Of a stretch of DNA of 15,821 bases, positions 1,886 to 12,502 are shown one piece after another. The notes beneath the pieces were generated by a model that ran no database searches, was not told the origin of the DNA, and saw only the letters and a list, made by a program, of their open reading frames with translations. Every line of letters begins with the position of its first letter. Positions within the stretch are counted from its first letter, which is position 1. The position numbers and the translations under genes were made by a program. The DNA comes from Candidatus Diapherotrites archaeon CG10_big_fil_rev_8_21_14_0_10_31_34 (GTDB taxonomy: Archaea; Iainarchaeota; Iainarchaeia; Iainarchaeales; 1-14-0-10-31-34). The stretch covers positions 1 to 15,821 of the forward strand of contig PFAI01000016.1 in the NCBI GenBank assembly GCA_002763225.1. Direction: 5' to 3'.

Positions 1886-2818
1886 TTAAAGATTATTTTG
1901 TTCACGAAAAAAATCAATTGTCTTAATTAAACCTTCATTCAAAGAAATTTTTGGTTTCCAATTCAATTTTTTTTTAGCCAGAGAAATATCAGGTTTTCTT
2001 TGTTTTGGGTCATCCTGCAAAGAAGGCTTGAATTCTATTTTCAAGTCTTTTCCGGTTAATTCCTTTATTTTTTCTGCAAAATCCAGAATAGAAAATTCTT
2101 CCGGATTGCCTAAATTAATTGGCCCGAAAAAATCTGATTCCATTGTTTTTAAGATTCCTTCAATCATATCAGAAACAAAACAAAAACTTCTGGTTTGTTT
2201 TCCTGAACCATAAACAGTTAAAGGCCTGTTGTTTAAAGCCTGATTAATAAAATTTGGCACAACTCTCCCGTCATTAATTCTCATTCTTGGCCCATAAGTA
2301 TTAAAGATTCTGACAATTTTTCCTTTGAAATTAAATTGTTTTTCATAAGCCTTAATTAATGCTTCAGAAAATCTTTTTGATTCATCATAACAAGAACGGA
2401 TTCCGACAGGATTTACGTTTCCATAATAAGATTCTTTTTGGGGATGCTCTAAAGGGTCTCCATAAACTTCTGAAGTAGAAGTAAACAAAAATTTTGCCTT
2501 GTTTTTTAAAGCTAAATCAAGCAAGTTTTTTGTTCCAACTGAACCAACTAACATTGTTTCAACCGGCTTGGAAAAATAATCAACAGGAGAAGCAAGAGAA
2601 GCTAAATGAAAAACTTCTTCAACTTTTTCTTCAAAAGAAAAAAAATTAATATCCTGTTCCAGAAAATGGAATTTATTGTTTTCCATTAAATGCTCAATGT
2701 TTTTTTTGTTTCCTGAAACAAGGTTATCAACACAAAAAACTTTTTTTCCCTGTGCAATTAATGAATCACATAAATGGCTTCCAATAAAACCTGCGCCTCC
2801 GGAAACTAAAACTTTCAT
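1886..2818 (-). CDS. uxs: UDP-glucuronate decarboxylase (UDP-xylose synthase) family SDR
   Basis: Motifs GGAGFIGSHLCD, FHLASLASP, STSEVYGDPLEHPQ.ESYYGNVNPVG.RSCYDESKR, RIFNTYGPRM..NDGRVV.NF and DDPKQRKPDI. Same operon as UDP-glucose dehydrogenase. Confidence 0.85.
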   Translation of the reverse strand: MKVLVSGGAGFIGSHLCDSLIAQGKKVFCVDNLVSGNKKNIEHLMENNKFHFLEQDINFFSFEEKVEEVFHLASLASPVDYFSKPVETMLVGSVGTKNLLDLALKNKAKFLFTSTSEVYGDPLEHPQKESYYGNVNPVGIRSCYDESKRFSEALIKAYEKQFNFKGKIVRIFNTYGPRMRINDGRVVPNFINQALNNRPLTVYGSGKQTRSFCFVSDMIEGILKTMESDFFGPINLGNPEEFSILDFAEKIKELTGKDLKIEFKPSLQDDPKQRKPDISLAKKKLNWKPKISLNEGLIKTIDFFREQNNL

Positions 2819-2827
2819 AAAAAAACC

Positions 2828-3724
2828 TTAAATCAAATCAACAGAATTCTTCAGATATTTTGATAGTTCTTTATTCATTTCAGGTCTCTTTAAAGCATAC
2901 TCAATATTTGCCTTTAAATAACTCATTTTGTCTCCAACAGTAAGCCATTGCCCGTCCTGAATTTCATAAGCCATTAATTTATCTATTTCATTTAAAATCC
3001 TTAAACCATCAGTTAACTGAAGCTCGTTTCCTTTTCCAAAAGGAATTTCCTCTAAAATCCCAAAAATTTCAGGTTTCAACAAATATCTTCCAACAATAGC
3101 CAAATCAGACGGCGCTTTATTTACAGCAGGCTTTTCAACCATTCCTTCAACCACAATCTGACCATTAACTTTTTTGTATTTAATTATTCCAAACTTAGGG
3201 ATTTCACTTTTTGAAACTTTTTGAACGCATAAAACAGAAGAATTATGTTTTTCATAAACATTAATTAAATTCTTTAAAGCAGGCTTATCAGATAAAATCA
3301 AATCATCTCCTAACAAAACAGCAAAAGGCTCATTTCCAATATGCTTTTTTGCACACAACACAGCATGGCCTAAACCCAAAGGCTCTTTTTGTCTGATATA
3401 ATAAATGTCAGCAAGATTATCAATTTCCTGCAATTGTTTAAGCCAATCTTTTTTTCCTTTTTCTTCAAGAACAGAATATAATTCCGGAACCCTGTCAAAA
3501 TGATTTTCAATTGCAGTCTTGTCTTTTCCGGTAACAATAATAATATCATCAATTCCGGATTTAACTGCTTCTTCAACAATATACTGAATCGCAGGCTTGT
3601 CTACAACAGGAAACATTTCTTTTGGAATTGCCTTGCTTGCAGGCAAAAATCTTGTTCCAAGACCTGCAGCAGGAATAACAGCTTTTTTTACAACAGTAGT
3701 TTCATGAATTAAATTTTTTACCAA
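2828..3724 (-). CDS. galU: UTP--glucose-1-phosphate uridylyltransferase
   Basis: Motifs KAVIPAAGLGTRFLPASKAIPKEM, IENHFD, RQKEPLGLGHAV, LLGDD, VEKP and ELQLTD. TTG start overlaps the end of ugd; the exact start is uncertain. Confidence 0.92.
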   Translation of the reverse strand: MVKNLIHETTVVKKAVIPAAGLGTRFLPASKAIPKEMFPVVDKPAIQYIVEEAVKSGIDDIIIVTGKDKTAIENHFDRVPELYSVLEEKGKKDWLKQLQEIDNLADIYYIRQKEPLGLGHAVLCAKKHIGNEPFAVLLGDDLILSDKPALKNLINVYEKHNSSVLCVQKVSKSEIPKFGIIKYKKVNGQIVVEGMVEKPAVNKAPSDLAIVGRYLLKPEIFGILEEIPFGKGNELQLTDGLRILNEIDKLMAYEIQDGQWLTVGDKMSYLKANIEYALKRPEMNKELSKYLKNSVDLI

Positions 3725-4983
3725 GATAATCCCTCATAATTTAAGGGTTTAATTTCCTTAAAAATGTTTCTTGCATCAAAAACAGGCTTTTCTTTGAAAT
3801 CCAGAGAAGAAAATTCATTCCAGTCAGTTAAAATCAAAACAATATCACTTAAATCAACTGTATTTTGAGGGGAATTATTATAAGAAATTTCAGGAATTTC
3901 TTTTTTCATGTTTTCTTCTGCCTGAGGATCATGAGCAATAACTTCTGCACGCTCTTTTAAAAGCAGTTTAATTACAGGAATTGAACGGCTTTCCCTTACA
4001 TCATCTGTTCCTGCCTTAAAAGCCAATCCAAGAACAGCAACCTTTTTTCCTTTTAATTCAGTCCTGGATTTAATTAAATCCAAAAAAACTTTTGGCTGCA
4101 ATTCATTTACCTGCATAACAGAATCAAGCAAAAAAGTTTCAATGCCTAATTCATTTCCTTTAGCAATCAAAGCAGAAACATCTTTAGGAAAACAACTGCC
4201 CCCAAAACCAATTCCTGCATTTAAAAAATTCGGGGAAATTCTTTTATCCAACCCGACTCCTTTAGAAACAATATAAGTGTCAATGCCCATTCTCTTACAG
4301 ATATTTCCAACTTCATTAATAAAAGAAATTTTTGTTGCAAGCAAAGAGTTAGAAGCATATTTAATCATTTCAGCTTCAGAAAAACCGCAAAAAAATTTAG
4401 GAGAAGAAAAAGAAGAATAAACTTCTTCCATTATTTTCTTTGTTTTTTCTTCTTCTAGTCCTAAAATAATTCTATCAGGATTCAAAAAATCCTCTAAAGC
4501 AAATCCTTCCCTTAAAGTTTCAGGGTTCATGCACAAGCCAAACTCCCCAAGATTTTTTCCTGAATGCTTTTCAAGCAAAGGCAAAACAAGTTTTTCAGTT
4601 GTAGAAGGCACAACAGTACTTTTAACTACAACAACATGAAAATCCGTTTTTTCTTTTAAAGCAAAAGCAATTTCTTTTGAAACAGTTTCAACAAAACTCA
4701 AATCACATTTACCTTTTTCATCACAAGGAGTTCCAACACAAATAAAAGAAACAGCTGAATCAGATACTGCTTTTTTTAAATCAGTAGAGGCAAAAAGGTT
4801 TATTCCAACAGTTTTATTCAGTGCTTCCCTTAATCCTTTCTCAAAAATTGGAGGAATTTTATTGTTAATCATTTCAACTTTTTCTTTGTTGTTGTCAACA
4901 CAAACAACTTTATGGCCGTTTAATGCTAAACCAACTCCTGTAATCAACCCGACATAGCCTGTTCCAATAACCGAAATATTCAT
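3718..4983 (-). CDS. ugd: UDP-glucose/GDP-mannose 6-dehydrogenase family protein (probably UDP-glucose 6-dehydrogenase)
   Basis: Motifs IGTGYVGL, ICVGTP, KSTVVP, NPETLREG, catalytic GFGGSCFPKD and LGLAFKAGTDDVRES. GGAGTGA RBS at 4988-4994. Confidence 0.93.
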   Translation of the reverse strand: MNISVIGTGYVGLITGVGLALNGHKVVCVDNNKEKVEMINNKIPPIFEKGLREALNKTVGINLFASTDLKKAVSDSAVSFICVGTPCDEKGKCDLSFVETVSKEIAFALKEKTDFHVVVVKSTVVPSTTEKLVLPLLEKHSGKNLGEFGLCMNPETLREGFALEDFLNPDRIILGLEEEKTKKIMEEVYSSFSSPKFFCGFSEAEMIKYASNSLLATKISFINEVGNICKRMGIDTYIVSKGVGLDKRISPNFLNAGIGFGGSCFPKDVSALIAKGNELGIETFLLDSVMQVNELQPKVFLDLIKSRTELKGKKVAVLGLAFKAGTDDVRESRSIPVIKLLLKERAEVIAHDPQAEENMKKEIPEISYNNSPQNTVDLSDIVLILTDWNEFSSLDFKEKPVFDARNIFKEIKPLNYEGLSW

Positions 4984-5074
4984 TAAATCACTCCAAAAAA
5001 GATAACAGATAAAGAAAACTTAAAGAAACTATTTTAAAATAAGAATGGTGCATATATAATATGATAGTATATGC
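4984..5074. promoter_or_regulatory. Divergent promoter region (ugd operon / RHH-nucleotidyltransferase A) with TATA-like box and candidate operator
   Basis: TTTTAAAA at 5032-5039, preceded by purine-rich AAAGAAAC. Palindrome CATA-TATAA-TATG at 5051-5063. Outer inverted repeat GCATATA (5050-5056) / TATATGC (5068-5074). Confidence 0.6.
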
Positions 5075-5877
5075 GGGAAAGAGTCACAATTACAATTAAA
5101 GAAGATGTACTTAAGCAGGTTGACAGAATAGTTGACGGTTTAACTATTAGAAGCAGAAGCCAGGCAATAGAATTTCTTTTATCAAAAACCCTTTCAGATT
5201 ACAGATTAAAAAACGCATTGATTTTAGCCGGAGGAAAAGACTTAATCAAAGGAATTCCAAAGAAAAGCAAATTCATTTTAGAGATTAATGGAAAATATTT
5301 GATTGAAAAAGTAATAAACAATTTAGAGGAATTCCACACAGGAAAAATTACAGTCAGCATGGATTCAAACAAAGAACAAATAATAAAAAAGCTTAATGAA
5401 AAAAAGATTTCAGTTGATTTTCTTGAATTAGATAAAGCTTCTGGTACAATTGAACCAATCAATAAAATGAAAAACAATTTTAAAGACACTTTTGCTGTAG
5501 TTCATGGAGACACTTTAAGCAGTTTAAATTTAAATGAAATGCTTGAGTTTCATCAGTCAAATAAAGCTCTTGCAACAATTGCTTTAACTACTGTGAATAA
5601 CCCGAAAGATTATGGAGTAGCAATGCTGCAAGGCAAAAAAATAACTGAATTTATTGAAAAACCTAAAAACGAAGCAGGAAGTTATTTGATTAGCGCAGGA
5701 TATTATATTTTTGAGCCAGAAATATTCAAATATATTTCAAGGGATATGAAAAGCATTGAAAAAGACTTGTTTCCAAAGCTGGCAGAAAAAGGTTTGCTGA
5801 ATGGCTATCCTTTTCAGGGAATCTACTTAAATGTTAACACAAAAAAAGACTTTGAAAAAGCAAAAAGGATTTTGTAA
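5071..5877 (+). CDS. RHH (NikR/CopG-like) domain fused to a degenerate sugar-phosphate nucleotidyltransferase domain; probable transcriptional regulator (paralog A)
   Basis: N-terminus RERVTITIKEDVLKQVD...RSRSQAIEFLL fits the RHH strand-helix-helix pattern. The rest has ALILAGG, HGD, DYGVA, FIEKP and AGYYIFEP, but lacks GxGTRLxP. Confidence 0.8.
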   Translation: MRERVTITIKEDVLKQVDRIVDGLTIRSRSQAIEFLLSKTLSDYRLKNALILAGGKDLIKGIPKKSKFILEINGKYLIEKVINNLEEFHTGKITVSMDSNKEQIIKKLNEKKISVDFLELDKASGTIEPINKMKNNFKDTFAVVHGDTLSSLNLNEMLEFHQSNKALATIALTTVNNPKDYGVAMLQGKKITEFIEKPKNEAGSYLISAGYYIFEPEIFKYISRDMKSIEKDLFPKLAEKGLLNGYPFQGIYLNVNTKKDFEKAKRIL

Positions 5878-5879
5878 AA

Positions 5880-5987
5880 CAAACTTTTTCAAAAAAAGTT
5901 TGATCAAAAACGGTTTGCTTCGCAAACACAAATTCTCAGAAAAGTTTGATCAAAAACACTTTTTTCAAAAAAAGCTGCACCAAAAAC
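5880..5987. repeat. Intergenic hairpin/direct-repeat cluster between convergent genes (REP-like; possible bidirectional terminator)
   Basis: AAAAGTTTGATCAAAAAC is exact at 5894-5911 and 5940-5957, with a 14/18 copy at 5970-5987. Stem CAAACTTTT/AAAAGTTTG at 5880-5902. Hairpin GTTTGC-TTC-GCAAAC at 5913-5927. Confidence 0.8.
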
Positions 5988-5989
5988 AA

Positions 5990-6805
5990 TCAAAAAAATT
6001 CTTCAAACAATTCTTTTTCTTCTAAAATTTGTTTTTCTGTTACGCCCTTGAAGTGCTCGATGATTACAGGAATTTCTTTGATTTGTTTTATCTGCTTAAG
6101 CAGGTCAAGCTCTTTTTCAGAAACAGGCAAATGAATTTTTTCCCCAATTGGTTTATGCAAATGAATTTCCTTTATTTTATCCTTGAACTGCATTAAATCA
6201 CTGAAAGTGTTATCGCTTAAAGAATGACCTAAATCAAAAAGCAAACCAAAAGAAGGAAAAGAATCAAAAACCTTTTGAAATTTTTCCCCAAAAACCAAAG
6301 CCTTGTTTTCATTTGAACTAATGTTTTCAATAGCCAAAGAAAACTTTTGTTTTTTGTTTTTTTCAGCAAAATAATTTAATACGTCAAACAAATTTTTCCA
6401 GCTTTGTTTGCTGTCAAGTTTTTCTTCAATTTTTGCATCTCCGATTCCGCCAATATCTTTATAAGAAACTTCAAACAAGAACCCTGGATGAAAACTAATT
6501 ATTTTTGCCCCTGCAAGTCCGGCAAAAACAAAAAAAGAATCAATTATCTGTTTATTTGTTTCAGTTAAACCCAAAGAAGGATTAAACCAGATTTTTTCTC
6601 TCATTGGGGGAAATAAGCCGTGTAAAGTGAAAGCAACATCAGGAAAATTGTCACGGATTTTCTTTGTGGTTTCAATTAAGTTTTCTTCAAATTTGTGCGC
6701 AGCGCCTAACTCAATTGTTTTAAAGCCTAAAGAATAAGCTTGTTCAATTGAATCATAAACTGAAAAGCCATTTGAAGCAAAATAACTTGAACTAATTCCC
6801 AGCAT
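5990..6805 (-). CDS. Xylose isomerase-like TIM-barrel protein (sugar phosphate isomerase/epimerase, AP-endonuclease-2 fold)
   Basis: Strand-end motifs IELG, TLHG, SFHPG, AIEN, LLFDLGH, EIHLH, H.P and IIEH retain the E/D/H/E metal ligands. GGGGA RBS upstream. Confidence 0.8.
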   Translation of the reverse strand: MLGISSSYFASNGFSVYDSIEQAYSLGFKTIELGAAHKFEENLIETTKKIRDNFPDVAFTLHGLFPPMREKIWFNPSLGLTETNKQIIDSFFVFAGLAGAKIISFHPGFLFEVSYKDIGGIGDAKIEEKLDSKQSWKNLFDVLNYFAEKNKKQKFSLAIENISSNENKALVFGEKFQKVFDSFPSFGLLFDLGHSLSDNTFSDLMQFKDKIKEIHLHKPIGEKIHLPVSEKELDLLKQIKQIKEIPVIIEHFKGVTEKQILEEKELFEEFF

Positions 6806-6899
6806 TTTATCCCCGCAAAAAAATAAATTAAAGCAATAAAAAATTAGAAGAGTTTGATTTTTAAATAAATGTAATCATAATTAATATGAAAAAGTATGA
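6806..6899. promoter_or_regulatory. Divergent promoter region (TIM-barrel gene / RHH-nucleotidyltransferase B) with TATA-like box and candidate operator
   Basis: TTTTTAAATAA at 6858-6868. Palindrome TCATA-ATTAA-TATGA at 6875-6889. A further GTATGA at 6894-6899 overlaps the start codon. Confidence 0.6.
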
Positions 6900-7741
6900 A
6901 CAAGAAAAGCGATAAAGAAAGAGTAACAATTAATATTGCTTCTAATGTTTTAAAAACAATTGACAGCAGAATTGACGGCCAAAAAATAAGAAACAGAAGC
7001 CATGCAATAGAAAACCTGGTTAGAAAAGCAATTCAAAGCACTGATTTATCCGCTGCATTTATTTTAGCCGGAGGAAAAGGAACAAGATTAAGGCCTTTAA
7101 CTGACAACATAACAAAACCAATGATCCAAGTCAAAGAAAAACCAATTCTGGAATACATAATTGAACTGCTGGCAAAATATGATGTAAGAAACGCAATTAT
7201 AGCATTAGGATACAAAGGAGAACAAATCAAAGAATATTTTGGAAACGGAGAAAAATGGAATATGAACATTGAATATGTAACAGAAAAAAAGCCTTTGGGA
7301 ACAGGAGGGCCATTAAGACTGGCAAGAAATTTGCTTGTAGACGAATTCCTGATGTTTAACGGAGACAATTTAACTAATATTAATTTAAAAGACATGCATT
7401 CTTTTCACAAAAAAAACAATGCTTTTGCAACAATAGCCCTTTCATCAGTTAAAGACCCAAAAAACTTTGGGGTAATTGAATTGCAGGGAAACCAAATCAA
7501 AAGATTTATTGAAAAACCAAGCAAGCCGGAATCAAATCTGATTAACGCAGGAACATATATCCTGAAACCAGAAGTAATTGATTTGATTCCAAAAGGATTT
7601 TCTTTAATTGAAAAAGATGTTTTTCCTCAGTTAAGCGAAGAAGGAAAATTATATGGGTATGTCTATAACGGCCAATGGTTTCCAACTGACACATTTGAAA
7701 GATATGAAAAAGCAAAAACCGAATGGAAAGGAATAATTTGA
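6896..7741 (+). CDS. RHH domain fused to a sugar-1-phosphate nucleotidyltransferase (mannose-1-phosphate guanylyltransferase-like) domain (paralog B)
   Basis: RHH: KERVTINIASNVLKTID...RNRSHAIENLVRKAI. Transferase: ILAGGKGTRLRPLT..ITKPM, EKKPLGTGG, FNGD, FIEKP, INAGTYIL. No C-terminal beta-helix domain. Confidence 0.85.
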   Translation: MNKKSDKERVTINIASNVLKTIDSRIDGQKIRNRSHAIENLVRKAIQSTDLSAAFILAGGKGTRLRPLTDNITKPMIQVKEKPILEYIIELLAKYDVRNAIIALGYKGEQIKEYFGNGEKWNMNIEYVTEKKPLGTGGPLRLARNLLVDEFLMFNGDNLTNINLKDMHSFHKKNNAFATIALSSVKDPKNFGVIELQGNQIKRFIEKPSKPESNLINAGTYILKPEVIDLIPKGFSLIEKDVFPQLSEEGKLYGYVYNGQWFPTDTFERYEKAKTEWKGII

Positions 7742-7766: not shown

Positions 7767-8729
7767 ATGAAAAAAATACTGATAACAGGCATTAATGGTT
7801 TTGTGGGAAGCCATTTAGCTGAATATGTTTTAAACAACAATTTAGGCGAAGTGCATGGAAGCTACAGAAAAAACGAGGATTTATCTAACATTAAAGGAAT
7901 AATAAACCAAATAGAATTAATTGAATGCGATATAACTGATTCATATGGAGTAGACAAAACAATAAAAGAAATCAAGCCTGAATACATTTTTCATTTAGCT
8001 GCACAGGCTTTTGTTCCAAGTTCATGGAAATCCCCGATTGAAACAATGAATACAAACATTATTGGCTCATTAAATTTATTTGAAGCAATCAAAAACAACA
8101 ACAAAGACATTACAATCCAGATAGCTGGTTCAAGCGAAGAATACGGTTTAGTTAAAGAAAATGAAGTTCCAATGACAGAATTAAATCCTTTAAGACCTTT
8201 AAGCCCTTACGGAGTAAGCAAAGTCGCAATGGATTTGTTAGGCTACCAGTATTATCAAAGTTATGGACTAAAAATTGTCAGAACCCGAGCATTCAACCAT
8301 GAAGGCCCTAGAAGAGGAGAACAATATGTTACAAGCAATTTTGCAAAACAAGTTGCATTAATTGAAGCAGGAAAACAAAAACCAATTTTAATGGTGGGAA
8401 ACTTAGAAGCAAAAAGAGATTACACTGATGTAAGAGACATGGTTAAAGCTTACTGGCTTGCAGCAGAAAAAGGAGTTCCAGGAGAAGTATATAATATTGC
8501 TTCAGGAAAAGCATACAAAATTCAAGTAATAGTAGACATACTAAAAAAATTAACTAAAAAAGATTTTGAAGTAAAACAAGACCCAAAAAGATTAAGACCT
8601 TCAGATGTGCAAATTTTATTAGGAGACTCAACTAAATTCAGAAAACAAACCGGCTGGAAACCGGAAATCCCGTTTGAAAAAACAATGGAAGACTTATTAA
8701 ATTACTGGAGAGAAAAAATCAAGGAATAA
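7767..8729 (+). CDS. GDP-mannose 4,6-dehydratase family SDR (GMD, or the related GDP-4-keto-6-deoxymannose reductase RMD)
   Basis: Motifs LITGINGFVGSHL, FHLAAQAFVPSSW, SSEEYG, PLSPYGVSK, FNHEGPRRG, GNLEAKRD and LRPSDV..LLGD. GGGGG RBS upstream. Confidence 0.82.
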   Translation: MKKILITGINGFVGSHLAEYVLNNNLGEVHGSYRKNEDLSNIKGIINQIELIECDITDSYGVDKTIKEIKPEYIFHLAAQAFVPSSWKSPIETMNTNIIGSLNLFEAIKNNNKDITIQIAGSSEEYGLVKENEVPMTELNPLRPLSPYGVSKVAMDLLGYQYYQSYGLKIVRTRAFNHEGPRRGEQYVTSNFAKQVALIEAGKQKPILMVGNLEAKRDYTDVRDMVKAYWLAAEKGVPGEVYNIASGKAYKIQVIVDILKKLTKKDFEVKQDPKRLRPSDVQILLGDSTKFRKQTGWKPEIPFEKTMEDLLNYWREKIKE

Positions 8730-8743
8730 ACACCGGCGATTTT

Positions 8744-9268
8744 ATGGAAGACTTAAAAGAAAAAATAAGAAATATTCCTGATTTCCCAAAAAAAGGAATA
8801 ATGTTCAGGGATATAACTACATTATTGCAGGACCCAAAAGCAACAAAAAAAGCAATTCAAGGAATGATTAAACCATTTGAAAACGAAAAAATTGATGTTG
8901 TTATAGGAACAGAAGCAAGAGGATTTATTTTTGGAGCAATAATTGCATTTGAATTAGGGGTTTCTTTTGTTCCAGTAAGAAAACCTGGAAAGCTTCCATT
9001 TGAAACAGAAAAAGCTTCTTATGAAAAAGAATATGGAGAAGATGAATTAGAAATGCATTTAGATGCAATCAAAAAAGGAGACAAAGTTTTAGTTTGTGAC
9101 GATTTATTAGCAACTGCGGGGACCGCAAAAGCAGTGAAAGAACTAGTTGAAAAATTAGGTGGGGAAATAATTGGATTTTGTTTTTTAATTGAATTAAGTT
9201 TTTTGCAGGGAAGAGAAAAACTTAAGCCGTATAAAGTTTTTTCTTTAATTGATTATAATTCAGAGTGA
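8744..9268 (+). CDS. apt: Adenine phosphoribosyltransferase
   Basis: Motifs IPDFPKKGIMFRDIT, EARGFIFG, VRKPGKLP, EYG and the PRPP-binding loop VCDDLLATAGT. Confidence 0.96.
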   Translation: MEDLKEKIRNIPDFPKKGIMFRDITTLLQDPKATKKAIQGMIKPFENEKIDVVIGTEARGFIFGAIIAFELGVSFVPVRKPGKLPFETEKASYEKEYGEDELEMHLDAIKKGDKVLVCDDLLATAGTAKAVKELVEKLGGEIIGFCFLIELSFLQGREKLKPYKVFSLIDYNSE

Positions 9269-10050
9269 TTAAAATGATTGGATTAATCGGCGGAACAGGA
9301 TTTGAAGACCCAAATTTATTCAAATTAATAAAAGAAAAAAAAGTTTCAACTGAGTTTGGAAAACCCAGTTCAACAATAAAAATCGGAGAAATAGCAGGAA
9401 AAAAAGTTGCATTGCTTTCAAGGCATGGAACAAAACACACAATTAATCCTTCAAACGTAAATTACAGGGCAAACATTCAGGCATTAAAAGAAGTTGGAGT
9501 AACAAAAATTTTGAGTGCTTCTGCAGTAGGAAGCTTAAAAGAAGAATTCAAGCCAGGGGAATTTGTTTTTTTAGACCAGTTCATTGACCGCACAACAAAA
9601 AGACAGCAAACTTTTTTTGATAAAAACAAAGTATGCCATATTTCTGTTGCAGAACCATTTTGTTCAAATTTAAGAAAAAACTTAATCCAGTCAGCCAAAG
9701 AACTGAAATTTGATTTTCACGAAAAAGGAATTTGTGTTGTAATTGAAGGTCCTCGTTTTTCAACCAAAGCAGAAAGCAATTTATTCAGAAGCTGGAATGC
9801 AGATATAATTGGAATGACTTTAGTTCCAGAAGTTGTTTTAGCAAGAGAAGCAGAAATCTGTTATGCATCAATTTCAACAATAACCGATTATGATGTATGG
9901 AAAGAAAAACCAGTTGACGTGGAAAGCGTTTTAAAAACAATGAAAGAATCCAATTCAAAATTACAGCAGTTAATCAAACATGTTGTTCCATTAATAGATG
10001 AAAAAAAAGACTGTGAATGCTATCACTCTTTAGATAATGCGTTTGTTTAA
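9265..10050 (+). CDS. mtnP: S-methyl-5'-thioadenosine phosphorylase
   Basis: Motifs IGLIGGTG, RHG.KH...P..VNYRANI, SAVGSL, DQFIDRT, IEGPRFSTKAES, GMT..PE..LARE and TDYD. Start is GTG 9265 (overlapping the apt stop) or ATG 9274. Confidence 0.93.
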   Translation: MIKMIGLIGGTGFEDPNLFKLIKEKKVSTEFGKPSSTIKIGEIAGKKVALLSRHGTKHTINPSNVNYRANIQALKEVGVTKILSASAVGSLKEEFKPGEFVFLDQFIDRTTKRQQTFFDKNKVCHISVAEPFCSNLRKNLIQSAKELKFDFHEKGICVVIEGPRFSTKAESNLFRSWNADIIGMTLVPEVVLAREAEICYASISTITDYDVWKEKPVDVESVLKTMKESNSKLQQLIKHVVPLIDEKKDCECYHSLDNAFV

Positions 10051-10676
10051 AGCCTTCTTTTTGGAGTAACTTTTCTACTCGTTTTTTGTTTTTTCTTTTT
10101 TGACTCACTGACTATTTGGGTTAGGGTTTTGTGAGGATTTAACTTACTCAAAATATTATTCCTTTTAGCAACAAATTTTGGGTCAATTAACTGATTAGGC
10201 GTCAAAGGAATTAACTTAAGGAAATGCAATGCACTGGCAAAAGGAGTAAGCAATACTTTAGAATTAGTTTTATTCTTTAAATTAATTGAATGAGCTGCGC
10301 CAAGAAAATCAAGCGGGCACTTAGCAATACCTTTTTTAACAAAAACTTTTTCTCTTTCAGAAATCATTATTTTTGCTCTGATTAAATCCAAGGTTTTTCC
10401 TTTACTATACCAATCATAAAGCTTTTTTCTCAGTTTAGTTGAATCAACAAAAACAGGAATTCCTCCTGCATTTCTCACTAGTTTAACTACGCCTTTCCAA
10501 AAATCATCTTGAGGGAAAGCTGAAGGAATTTTCATTAATTCTTCAGTGTATTCAACTGCAACCTTCATTCCAGGTTTAACCATTTGTTTAACAATTCCCT
10601 CTAGTTCAGGCAAAAAGTCCGGGCTTGCAGTAACTCCGACAGAAACTCGTTCAGCTTTCTTTTTTTTCTCTGCCAT
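10047..10676 (-). CDS. Hypothetical basic protein with Lys/Arg-rich termini
   Basis: 209-aa ORF that fills the gap and shares TTAA stop overlap with mtnP. TTAAATA box about 22-28 nt before the ATG. No family recognised. Confidence 0.65.
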   Translation of the reverse strand: MAEKKKKAERVSVGVTASPDFLPELEGIVKQMVKPGMKVAVEYTEELMKIPSAFPQDDFWKGVVKLVRNAGGIPVFVDSTKLRKKLYDWYSKGKTLDLIRAKIMISEREKVFVKKGIAKCPLDFLGAAHSINLKNKTNSKVLLTPFASALHFLKLIPLTPNQLIDPKFVAKRNNILSKLNPHKTLTQIVSESKKKKQKTSRKVTPKRRL

Positions 10677-11721: not shown

Positions 11722-12502
11722 ATGCCAAACACACGATTAAAGGCTCATAGAACTGCACAAAAAAAGACAACAAGAAAAAAAATATACTGGACTTCAAGAA
11801 AATTATATGAAAAAGGTCAGCCATTTAGGACTTTTTTAACTGAAGCAGGGTTCAGAGAAACTGACTTCCTGTTTAACAAAATACATTCAGTTGTTTCTCA
11901 TCCAGAAAAAACCAGCGCATTAGAAATCGGACCAGGAACATTAAAAAAAAATAGTTTGAAAACCAATATTAACTGAACTGCCTTTCAGAGAAAAATATTT
12001 TTTGGATTCAAGCATTAAACTAGCAAGAAACCTTAAATCAAGAACAGGGGAAACAGTTGTTGTAGGCGATGCAAGAAATCTTCCTTTTGACCAAAAACAA
12101 AAATTTGGATTAGTTTTAATGAATGAAGTATTAACACATATAAAGCCTTCTGAAAGATTAAAAACAATAATAAATATTTCAAAAATAGGCAATTCAATAG
12201 TAGTGCTTGACAGAAAACAATCTTCTTTAAATGAAATAATCAACAAAGAAAGAAGAAATGCTGTAGCTAAACTGGAAATACTATCAGGAGTAAAAGAAAA
12301 AAGCACTGCAAGAACCAGAAAAAAAATAAGAGAAAACAGTGATTTAAGAACAAGTCTTTCAAGTGCAAAAACAATTCAATCCAGAACAGTAAACTTTAAT
12401 CCACTAAAAAGAGTTTTGGAAAAAAACGGCTGGCAAGTGGAATTACAAGACATTGAATCAAGAGGAACCAAATACACCATACTTACTGCAAAAAGAAAAT
12501 AA
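11722..12502 (+). pseudogene. Class I SAM-dependent methyltransferase split by a +1 frame change between about 11957 and 11976
   Basis: ORF 11722-11976 ends just after motif I (ALEIGPGT). The +1 frame opens at 11960 with KPILTELPFREKYFLDSS...VVVGDARNLPF...FGLVLMNEVLTHI, the remaining methyltransferase motifs. Confidence 0.75.

Follow-up and report, generated by a model that had tools for sequence, protein, structure and literature searches.

What is the function of two neighbouring genes whose products each join a short domain of DNA-binding type to the fold of a sugar-nucleotide enzyme? The question is raised by a 15,821-base stretch of archaeal DNA (the window), bases 1–15,821 of contig C39 in the source genome G000 (Candidatus Diapherotrites; 1.04 Mb; 81% complete; ~31% G+C). 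Both genes, here called A and B, lie on the plus strand with a minus-strand TIM-barrel gene between them. We propose that A and B are probably one-component transcription regulators, each the fusion of a NikR-like ribbon-helix-helix (RHH) domain with a sugar-1-phosphate nucleotidyltransferase (NTase) fold, and each with an operator on its own promoter. The argument turns on the following features.

5032–5042, plus strand: TATA-like box of A, TTTTAAAATAA, with a palindromic core, read from the sequence.
5050–5073, plus strand: operator of A, a palindrome at 5050–5064 (degenerate TCATAy-N3-GTATGA) with a third half-site at 5069–5073 over the ATG.
5071–5877, plus strand: gene A, open reading frame (ORF) of 268 amino acids (aa); RHH domain at residues 1–40, a linker and an NTase fold.
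6858–6869, plus strand: TATA-like box of B, TTTTTAAATAAA, read from the sequence; geometry as in the RHH-bearing B orthologues.
6875–6898, plus strand: operator of B, TCATAA-TTA-ATATGA, four bases, then GTATG over the ATG; first-ranked site of the matrix described below.
6896–7741, plus strand: gene B, ORF of 281 aa; RHH domain at about residues 7–47, then the NTase.

The N-termini of A and B are true NikR-like RHH domains. In A the strand RVTITI is followed by RSRSQAIE, and in B RVTINI is followed by RNRSHAIE. Searched at full length, A matches the Pfam family RHH_1 over residues 4–37 with 19.7 bits, slightly below the cut-off of 20.5, and its N-terminus scanned by itself reaches 23.3 bits. 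The first 52 residues of B match E. coli NikR (1q5v) with E = 0.014. A profile built from 40 family N-termini matches NikR 1q5v (E = 1.7e-7), P. horikoshii NikR 2bj1 (8.9e-4) and CopG (7e-3); in it, the R-V-T-I-T strand and the N-R-S-x-A-I helix start align residue for residue with NikR, and RHH_1 is matched by 32 of the 40 N-termini. AlphaFold models of both proteins consist of an extended N-terminal strand, two helices, a linker of lower confidence and the NTase fold. In the source genome the family RHH profile finds A and B only, and the general RHH_1 model adds two small ORFs.

A preliminary description, made from the DNA alone, had assigned both genes an RHH domain of ~45 aa fused to an NTP-transferase domain. 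That architecture is borne out by the ORFs and their translations, by the family profile and Pfam, and by the relation of A to B (38% identical over 269 aligned columns, E = 1e-56); the N-termini, whose failure to model as RHH it had named as counter-evidence, come out as strand-helix-helix. The Pfam family NTP_transferase (PF00483) covers residues 50–244 of A (E = 5.1e-24) and 54–274 of B (E = 7.7e-46). The model of A (predicted local distance difference test score 89) resembles GMPPB, VTC1 and GMPPA chains (TMq 0.70–0.73), with 7d74_G (E = 2.5e-19) and 7d72_A (4.3e-17) as best matches. The closest solved relatives of B are GDP-mannose pyrophosphorylases, for example 7whr and the GMPPB-like 7d72_K, at ~1e-39. 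None of the NCBIfam equivalogs (GalU, RmlA, mannose-1-phosphate guanylyltransferase, glucose-1-phosphate cytidylyltransferase and others) reaches its cut-off for A or B, the best scores being 88.8 bits against 300 for A and 184.1 against 440 (mannose-1-phosphate guanylyltransferase) for B.

The two proteins part ways at the catalytic loop, a difference absent from the preliminary description, which also leaves the intervening TIM-barrel gene unmentioned. The signature G-G-x-G-T-R-x-x-P...K is present in B as GGKGTRLRP...K and missing in A, where the corresponding residues 56–69 are degenerate. The searches with A and with B each listed at least 120 full-length relatives with the N-terminal extension, and family counts here are out of 121: the canonical loop GG-x-G-[TSEV]-[RK]-[LM] occurs in 118 listed members of the B family versus none of the A family, where the loop differs in length and sequence and some half-eroded forms occur. 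Mean column identity in the A family is 0.76 for the RHH domain, 0.37 for the signature loop and 0.64 for the rest of the NTase; the B family gives 0.62, 0.81 and 0.70, respectively. Judged from these alignments, selection is reversed between the families, A keeping the RHH domain and B the signature loop. Within the RHH domain, the best-conserved part of the A family, the predicted DNA-contact strand and the start of helix 2 stand out. A retains the GD, F-x-E-K-P and G-Y motifs, and the second metal-binding Asp motif is N-x-N in its family. In the B family the usual catalytic positions are all invariant or almost so; most of that family has DTGT where B of this genus has PTDT. The sequence of A thus suggests a pseudo-enzyme in which selection still acts on the pocket, and that of B an active enzyme.

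The degenerate loop of A also fits another account, in which the main role of A is allosteric, in partnership with a catalytic NTase (B or a nearby RHH-less paralogue), like that of GMPPA towards GMPPB or GalF towards GalU, with DNA binding secondary. We consider this unlikely as the main role of A, while noting that it is compatible with regulation of transcription. The resemblance is a real one: A is structurally nearest to GMPPB and GMPPA and combines a conserved pocket with the kind of degenerate loop seen in inactive regulatory paralogues, and most related loci have a B-type NTase no more than a few kb away from A, the two adjoining directly in L133 and L135. However, GMPPA/GMPPB contacts are mediated by a C-terminal domain that A does not have, its structural alignments covering ~228 columns of targets 355–367 residues long and A stopping after the NTase core. 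GMPPA and GalF, in turn, work by contacting other proteins and carry no DNA-binding domain, and such a role for A leaves its highly conserved RHH domain and operator unexplained. Prediction of an A/B complex from both family alignments gave scores of 0.29 and 0.24 against a mark of 0.32, without controls, and speaks neither for nor against binding.

Evidence for regulation also comes from the promoters. The operators of A and B both begin 21 nucleotides (nt) upstream of the ATG. Orthologues of A carry the motif TCATAy-N3-GTATGA-N4-GTATG, 8–11 nt downstream of a TTTAAA-type box that occupies the position equivalent to the TATA-like box of A; this box at 5032–5042, palindromic at its core, may also serve the minus-strand operon. 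The exact core TCATA-N5-TATGA occurs within 130 nt upstream of A at 22 of 30 loci, and a relaxed form at 28 of the 29 loci from other genomes; at the 29th, the site precedes a 204-aa ORF that itself precedes A. Sixteen of the 28 foreign sites start 21 nt before the ATG with the third half-site over it, and in the loci with longer leaders this half-site is present as GTATG or ATATG in 9 of 12. In a test of all hexamers, GTATGA/TCATAC was the most enriched (26 of 30 upstream regions versus 59 of 891 windows of the same loci), followed by TTTAAA (25 of 30 versus 101 of 891).

A position weight matrix was built from the 28 A-promoter sites of other genomes only and run over both strands of G000 (~2.1 million positions), the B promoter having had no part in its training. 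Its first rank is position 6875, in the B promoter (22.95 bits), and its second position 5050, in the A promoter (22.05 bits). The third is C20:5769, at the start of a pyruvate phosphate dikinase gene (19.6 bits), and the fourth falls to 13.6 bits, leaving three sites at or above 19 bits. A match at C46:3669 (10.3 bits) was dropped as lying inside a coding region. In three related genomes of 95–99% completeness (G018, G045 and G150), the pattern TCATAH-N3-DTATGA occurs once each, at the A promoter, and the reversed-pattern control 0, 3 and 0 times. Across twenty related loci of 12.8 kb, matrix hits of at least 10 bits comprise all 20 spacers between A and the UDP-glucose 6-dehydrogenase (UGDH) gene, three B promoters of the same genus and a weak 14.5-bit site in L132.

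Presence of the site follows presence of the RHH domain. The RHH-bearing B orthologues of this phylum have TCATAA-N3-WTATGA at the 21-nt position in four of five cases and the right arm only in the fifth; none of 11 RHH-less B orthologues has such a half-site within 110 nt upstream. Restriction of the operator to promoters of RHH-bearing genes gives strong in silico support to a predicted sequence-specific DNA binding and to autoregulation. The DNA binding suggested in the preliminary description thereby gains its computational counterpart, a conserved NikR-type half-site operator in the promoters of exactly the RHH-bearing genes. B-family loci of other phyla use the same hexamer as tandem direct repeats (TCATAC) that recur every 10 nt immediately before the TATA box, and in some loci of the candidate phyla radiation (CPR; L065, L072 and L085) GTATGA-type half-sites adjoin the start codon. 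At least two half-sites lie within 120 nt upstream in 16 of 26 of these other-phylum loci versus 10 of 270 upstream regions of other ORFs in these loci.

A further pattern is offered as a lead only. NikR reads its half-site through strand residues Arg3, Thr5 and Thr7. Among A-type loci, left-arm position 6 is C or T in 24 of 24 whose strand reads T-x-T (L005–L029), and A in five of five whose strand reads T-x-S (L030–L034, one clade); it is also A in the RHH-bearing B loci of this family (L116–L119), with strand T-x-N. The operator base may thus vary with the residue, Thr, Ser or Asn, at the third exposed position of the RHH strand as part of a recognition code, and the pattern represents at most two evolutionary events.

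These promoter data bear directly on the simplest alternative, namely that A and B are only enzymes, the RHH domain being a dimerisation module and the palindrome a promoter element or the site of another factor. The full NTase fold in both proteins is in keeping with it, as is the fact that RHH domains are obligate dimers, and the exact core motif occurs in G000 no more often than chance would have it. Against it stand the conservation pattern of A, in which the predicted DNA-contact strand and the helix 2 start are the best-kept parts, and the loss of the catalytic loop from all 121 listed A-family members. Nor does the palindrome behave as a general promoter element, given its three high-scoring sites in G000 and its single occurrence in each of G018, G045 and G150; it is gone from the RHH-less B orthologues, and the family RHH profile matches A and B alone in G000. 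We regard a purely enzymatic role for both proteins as improbable.

For B by itself, the converse can be asked: whether it, like A, acts in vivo as a regulator only, its intact loop binding an NTP or a nucleoside diphosphate (NDP)-sugar as ligand without turnover. The operator of B follows the same design as that of A, its best equivalog score is 184 bits against a cut-off of 440, and PTDT stands at the second Asp motif in this genus, all of which would suit such a role. It is hard to reconcile, however, with a signature loop conserved above all other segments of the B family (0.81) and with catalytic positions that are invariant or almost so, and the RHH-less orthologues in the same operon position resemble ordinary enzymes. 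We therefore give little credence to a B without catalysis. A toxin-antitoxin or plasmid-partition RHH was rejected, with no partner toxin or ParA-type gene in the window and the RHH domain fused to a 220-residue metabolic fold.

Several observations weigh against the proposal that A and B are regulators, or limit how far it can be taken. The exact core motif is found five times in G000 against 5.0 expected, so the case relies on conservation across genomes and on matrix rank. The matrix itself contains the GTATG overlapping start codons and favours gene starts, and the operator of A in the window is degenerate (GCATAT...ATATGA versus TCATAy...GTATGA). The related genomes are kin, so that counts overstate independence, and the RHH-bearing B orthologues of the phylum all come from one family. 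B by itself gives no significant Pfam RHH_1 match, and its genus variant PTDT for DTGT detracts from an enzyme activity that is otherwise probable on sequence grounds. The distance from the operator to the UGDH start ranges from 38 to 109 nt across loci, and control of the UGDH operon is less certain than autoregulation. No NCBIfam model that would point to a substrate or ligand reaches its cut-off for A or B. On a basis that is computational throughout, we infer DNA binding, repression rather than activation, ligand control, control of the UGDH operon and the enzyme activity of B; the 24 sequencing runs listed are all DNA, from groundwater or aquifer metagenomes.

The genes around A and B show the pathways that such regulators could serve. 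They are listed here with the hairpin that lies between A and its convergent neighbour.

1886–2818, minus strand: UXS-like epimerase gene, after UGDH and GalU.
2828–3724, minus strand: GalU, passing TIGR01099 (350.4 bits against a cut-off of 326.8).
3718–4983, minus strand: UGDH, first gene of the operon divergent from A, with three UDPG_MGDP_dh domains in Pfam.
Minus strand, on the same divergent operon side as UGDH: RmlC, RmlB and RmlD genes, by family searches.
5913–5927: hairpin with the sequence GTTTGC-GAA-GCAAAC, located where A and the TIM-barrel gene converge; on the minus strand a T-run comes after it.
5990–6805, minus strand: xylose-isomerase-like TIM-barrel gene (AP_endonuc_2, Pfam E = 1.7e-13), convergent with A and divergent from B.
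7767–8729, plus strand: GMD-like 4,6-dehydratase gene, downstream of B after a gap of 25 nt.
8744–9268, plus strand: phosphoribosyltransferase gene, 14 nt after the GMD-like gene.
9265–10050, plus strand: PNP/MTAP-type phosphorylase gene, overlapping the phosphoribosyltransferase gene by 4 nt.

The pair was described beforehand as lying between a UDP-xylose/dTDP-rhamnose operon and a GMD-family gene, and family searches agree for both flanks. The expected association with nucleotide-sugar genes also recurs elsewhere: of 20 related loci, 17 have UGDH and A directly divergent and one more has an ORF between the two, the remaining two UGDH-A loci being unresolved by the ORF filter used. In 10 of the 20, A and the B orthologue have a TIM-barrel homologue between them, and in an eleventh locus, L121, it lies beside the B orthologue, A not being called there by the same filter. 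B and the genes at 7767–10050 (GMD-like dehydratase, phosphoribosyltransferase and phosphorylase) form a probable operon, and the gene order downstream of B recurs after B orthologues in related loci; the phosphoribosyltransferase and PNP/MTAP-type phosphorylase follow the B orthologue, with RHH or without, in many of L116–L135. This order joins an NDP-sugar enzyme to nucleotide salvage.

The hairpin at 5913–5927 is likely a terminator; it was taken from a scan for sigma-70 promoters and terminators, of which the sigma-70 part is inapplicable to archaea and was left unused. The spacer around it (5861–5987) is rich in repeats, with four overlapping copies of a 51-nt unit, inverted repeats and two copies of TTTGATCAAA. 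Two further ORFs of the window, at 10047–10676 (minus strand, 209 aa) and 11722–11976 (plus strand, 84 aa), have no Pfam match at E ≤ 0.01. Contig C39 continues past the window, with a motif match at C39:15993.

Two sites outside the window concern other candidate targets. The third-ranked matrix site, at C20:5769–5783 (L115 3270–3284), reads TCATAC-TTT-TTATGA and is flanked by a TTTAAAA box on one side and, on the other, by the Shine-Dalgarno sequence and beginning of the gene for pyruvate phosphate dikinase; the palindrome is identical in G012, G013 and G015, degenerate in G011 and absent in G014 and G018. This gene is a possible third target in the genus. The palindrome TCATACAAAGTATGA stands 10 nt from the box TTTTAAAA before a quinolinate-synthase-like gene (nadA) at G013:C7:27524–27538 (L145) and, identically, at G015:C2:31824–31838 (L146), both genomes belonging to the source genus. 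The motif search found no nadA in G000, an assembly 81% complete, and absence from the organism is not implied.

How such a system would work can be outlined from the promoter geometry. A would act as an autoregulatory repressor with a pseudo-enzyme sensor domain, its loop lost and its pocket conserved. RHH dimers, one per hexamer, would occupy two inverted and one direct GTATGA-type half-sites 9–10 bp apart; the three hexamers would share one face of the helix, in the interval from the TATA box to the start of a leaderless gene A. Occupancy would block polymerase recruitment, the usual mode of repression in archaea. The operator lies inside the 87-bp divergent spacer common to A and the UGDH operon, and we take the UGDH/GalU/UXS operon as a likely second target of A because a regulator of itself alone makes little sense. 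A sugar-phosphate or nucleotide-sugar bound in the dead-enzyme pocket, the likely ligand site, would alter DNA binding; UDP-sugars and hexose-1-phosphates are candidates. B, on the other hand, would be an active NDP-sugar pyrophosphorylase that supplies NDP-hexose to the adjoining GMD-like dehydratase and, by way of an operator designed like that of A and equally far from the start codon, represses the operon to which it belongs.

To place the pair in a wider context, we searched for the architecture beyond this locus, as the preliminary description had envisaged for archaea, and found it conserved and widespread. A and B are two separate conserved families in DPANN archaea, the closest homologue records being of Diapherotrites, Iainarchaeia or Micrarchaeota type. 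Of the 215 genomes available for the phylum, 32 have a full-length A-type gene. B-type genes with an RHH domain are recorded under the labels Nano-, Woese-, Alti- and Parvarchaeota and in several CPR bacterial groups, the latter labelled Berkelbacteria, Microgenomates, Saccharibacteria, Andersenbacteria, Roizmanbacteria and Magasanikbacteria (L052, L054, L062, L065, L070, L072, L073, L078, L085 and L111); their occurrence there could reflect gene transfer between CPR and DPANN or binning errors. Each of A and B is found without the other in many genomes, so neither requires the other.

The RHH profile search returned 936 clusters at E ≤ 0.001 and 276 at E ≤ 1e-10 (clusters at 50% identity; 1.84 billion representatives). 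The 148 newly listed RHH proteins comprise 37 that have the AGG start of the NTase at full length, 58 shorter ones with AGG that were probably truncated by the end of a contig, 14 of less than 70 aa, and 39 others, among which are more degenerate C-terminal domains. P0307, P0358, P0375, P0384, P0386 and P0389, together with P0298, P0303, P0325 and P0353, pair the RHH domain with a shorter (205–233 aa) or different C-terminus without AGG; these may be further-eroded sensor domains or other architectures. Three forms exist side by side: an apparently active one of DNA-binding type (B), a dead-loop one (A) and ones that are further eroded.

To explore the evolutionary relation of the families, a FastTree phylogeny was computed from 54 NTase cores (13 A, 10 RHH-bearing B of this family, 11 RHH-less B orthologues, 15 RHH-bearing B of other phyla and five other NTases). 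The A clade has a support of 0.996, A with all B 0.93, and the RHH-less B orthologues as sister to the RHH-bearing B of this family 0.86; all B together reach a weak 0.45. The tree is midpoint-rooted, has five outgroup sequences and lost two of 15 chosen A sequences to the trimming pattern, and is thus indicative. It fits an old RHH-NTase fusion and an old A/B split, with later loss of the RHH domain in some B lineages. A recent local duplication of A and B was rejected in view of their separate old clades.

Comparison with known systems places these proteins closest to NikR (1q5v, 2hzv and 2bj1) in their DNA-binding half, with the same N-terminal RHH domain, strand and helix start, the same hexameric half-site GTATGA/TCATAC, and a flexible linker leading to a C-terminal domain of ligand-binding type, predicted in A and B, that could also join dimers. 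Unlike NikR, they have an NTP_transferase C-terminus in place of the nickel-binding (ACT-like) tetramerisation domain, the match to NikR covering residues 2–46 only, and the presumed ligand is a sugar phosphate or nucleotide-sugar and no metal. NikR is a homotetramer with two RHH DNA-binding domains, and its operator in E. coli is GTATGA-N16-TCATAC (PMC7055735). The operators described here instead have three half-sites 9–10 bp apart, as against two separated by 16 bp.

In that spacing they recall the CopG, Arc, MetJ and omega-type repressors, to which the profile match with CopG also points. Members of this class typically bind arrays of short half-sites spaced by roughly a helical turn, with one RHH dimer on each; they are small stand-alone proteins or have a small co-repressor and are not known to be fused to an enzyme fold of ~220 residues. 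B further resembles the trigger enzymes PutA, BirA and NadR in combining a DNA-binding domain with an apparently active enzyme behind its own operator, and PutA also uses an RHH domain. It differs from them in enzyme fold and pathway, having no PRODH, biotin-ligase or NMN-adenylyltransferase domain, and its dual function is a predicted one. We rate the RHH-NTase protein as a probable one-component regulator with an enzyme-derived sensor. The literature searched, which left most subscription journals outside, holds no description of an RHH + NTP_transferase protein. This agrees with the preliminary statement that no characterised regulator is known to have this architecture, and its forecast of automated annotation was accurate too, homologues being labelled 'NTP transferase domain-containing protein' or 'NDP-sugar pyrophosphorylase'.

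A broader picture can be drawn, tentatively and with more doubt than confidence. RHH-NTase proteins might form a large, unrecognised class of metabolite-responsive transcription factors in DPANN and CPR, with B-type members as true trigger enzymes in which catalysis gates DNA binding and A-type members as their dead-enzyme sensor descendants. A and B of this genus might then make up one circuit, told apart by half-sites GTATGA versus WTATGA (Thr to Asn/Ser), that links pyruvate phosphate dikinase (and nadA in relatives) with the synthesis of UDP-xylose and NDP-deoxyhexoses and with nucleotide salvage.

To our knowledge, very few transcription regulators of DPANN or CPR organisms have been characterised. 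In these sparsely characterised lineages the RHH-NTase family, a sizeable one by its 276 clusters, offers a defined operator, a promoter geometry and a short list of targets. The series from B through A to more eroded forms presents an enzyme turning into a sensor, and the plain enzyme names now attached to such proteins miscount both the enzymes and the regulators of these organisms, for whose host-attached life surface glycans are thought to matter.

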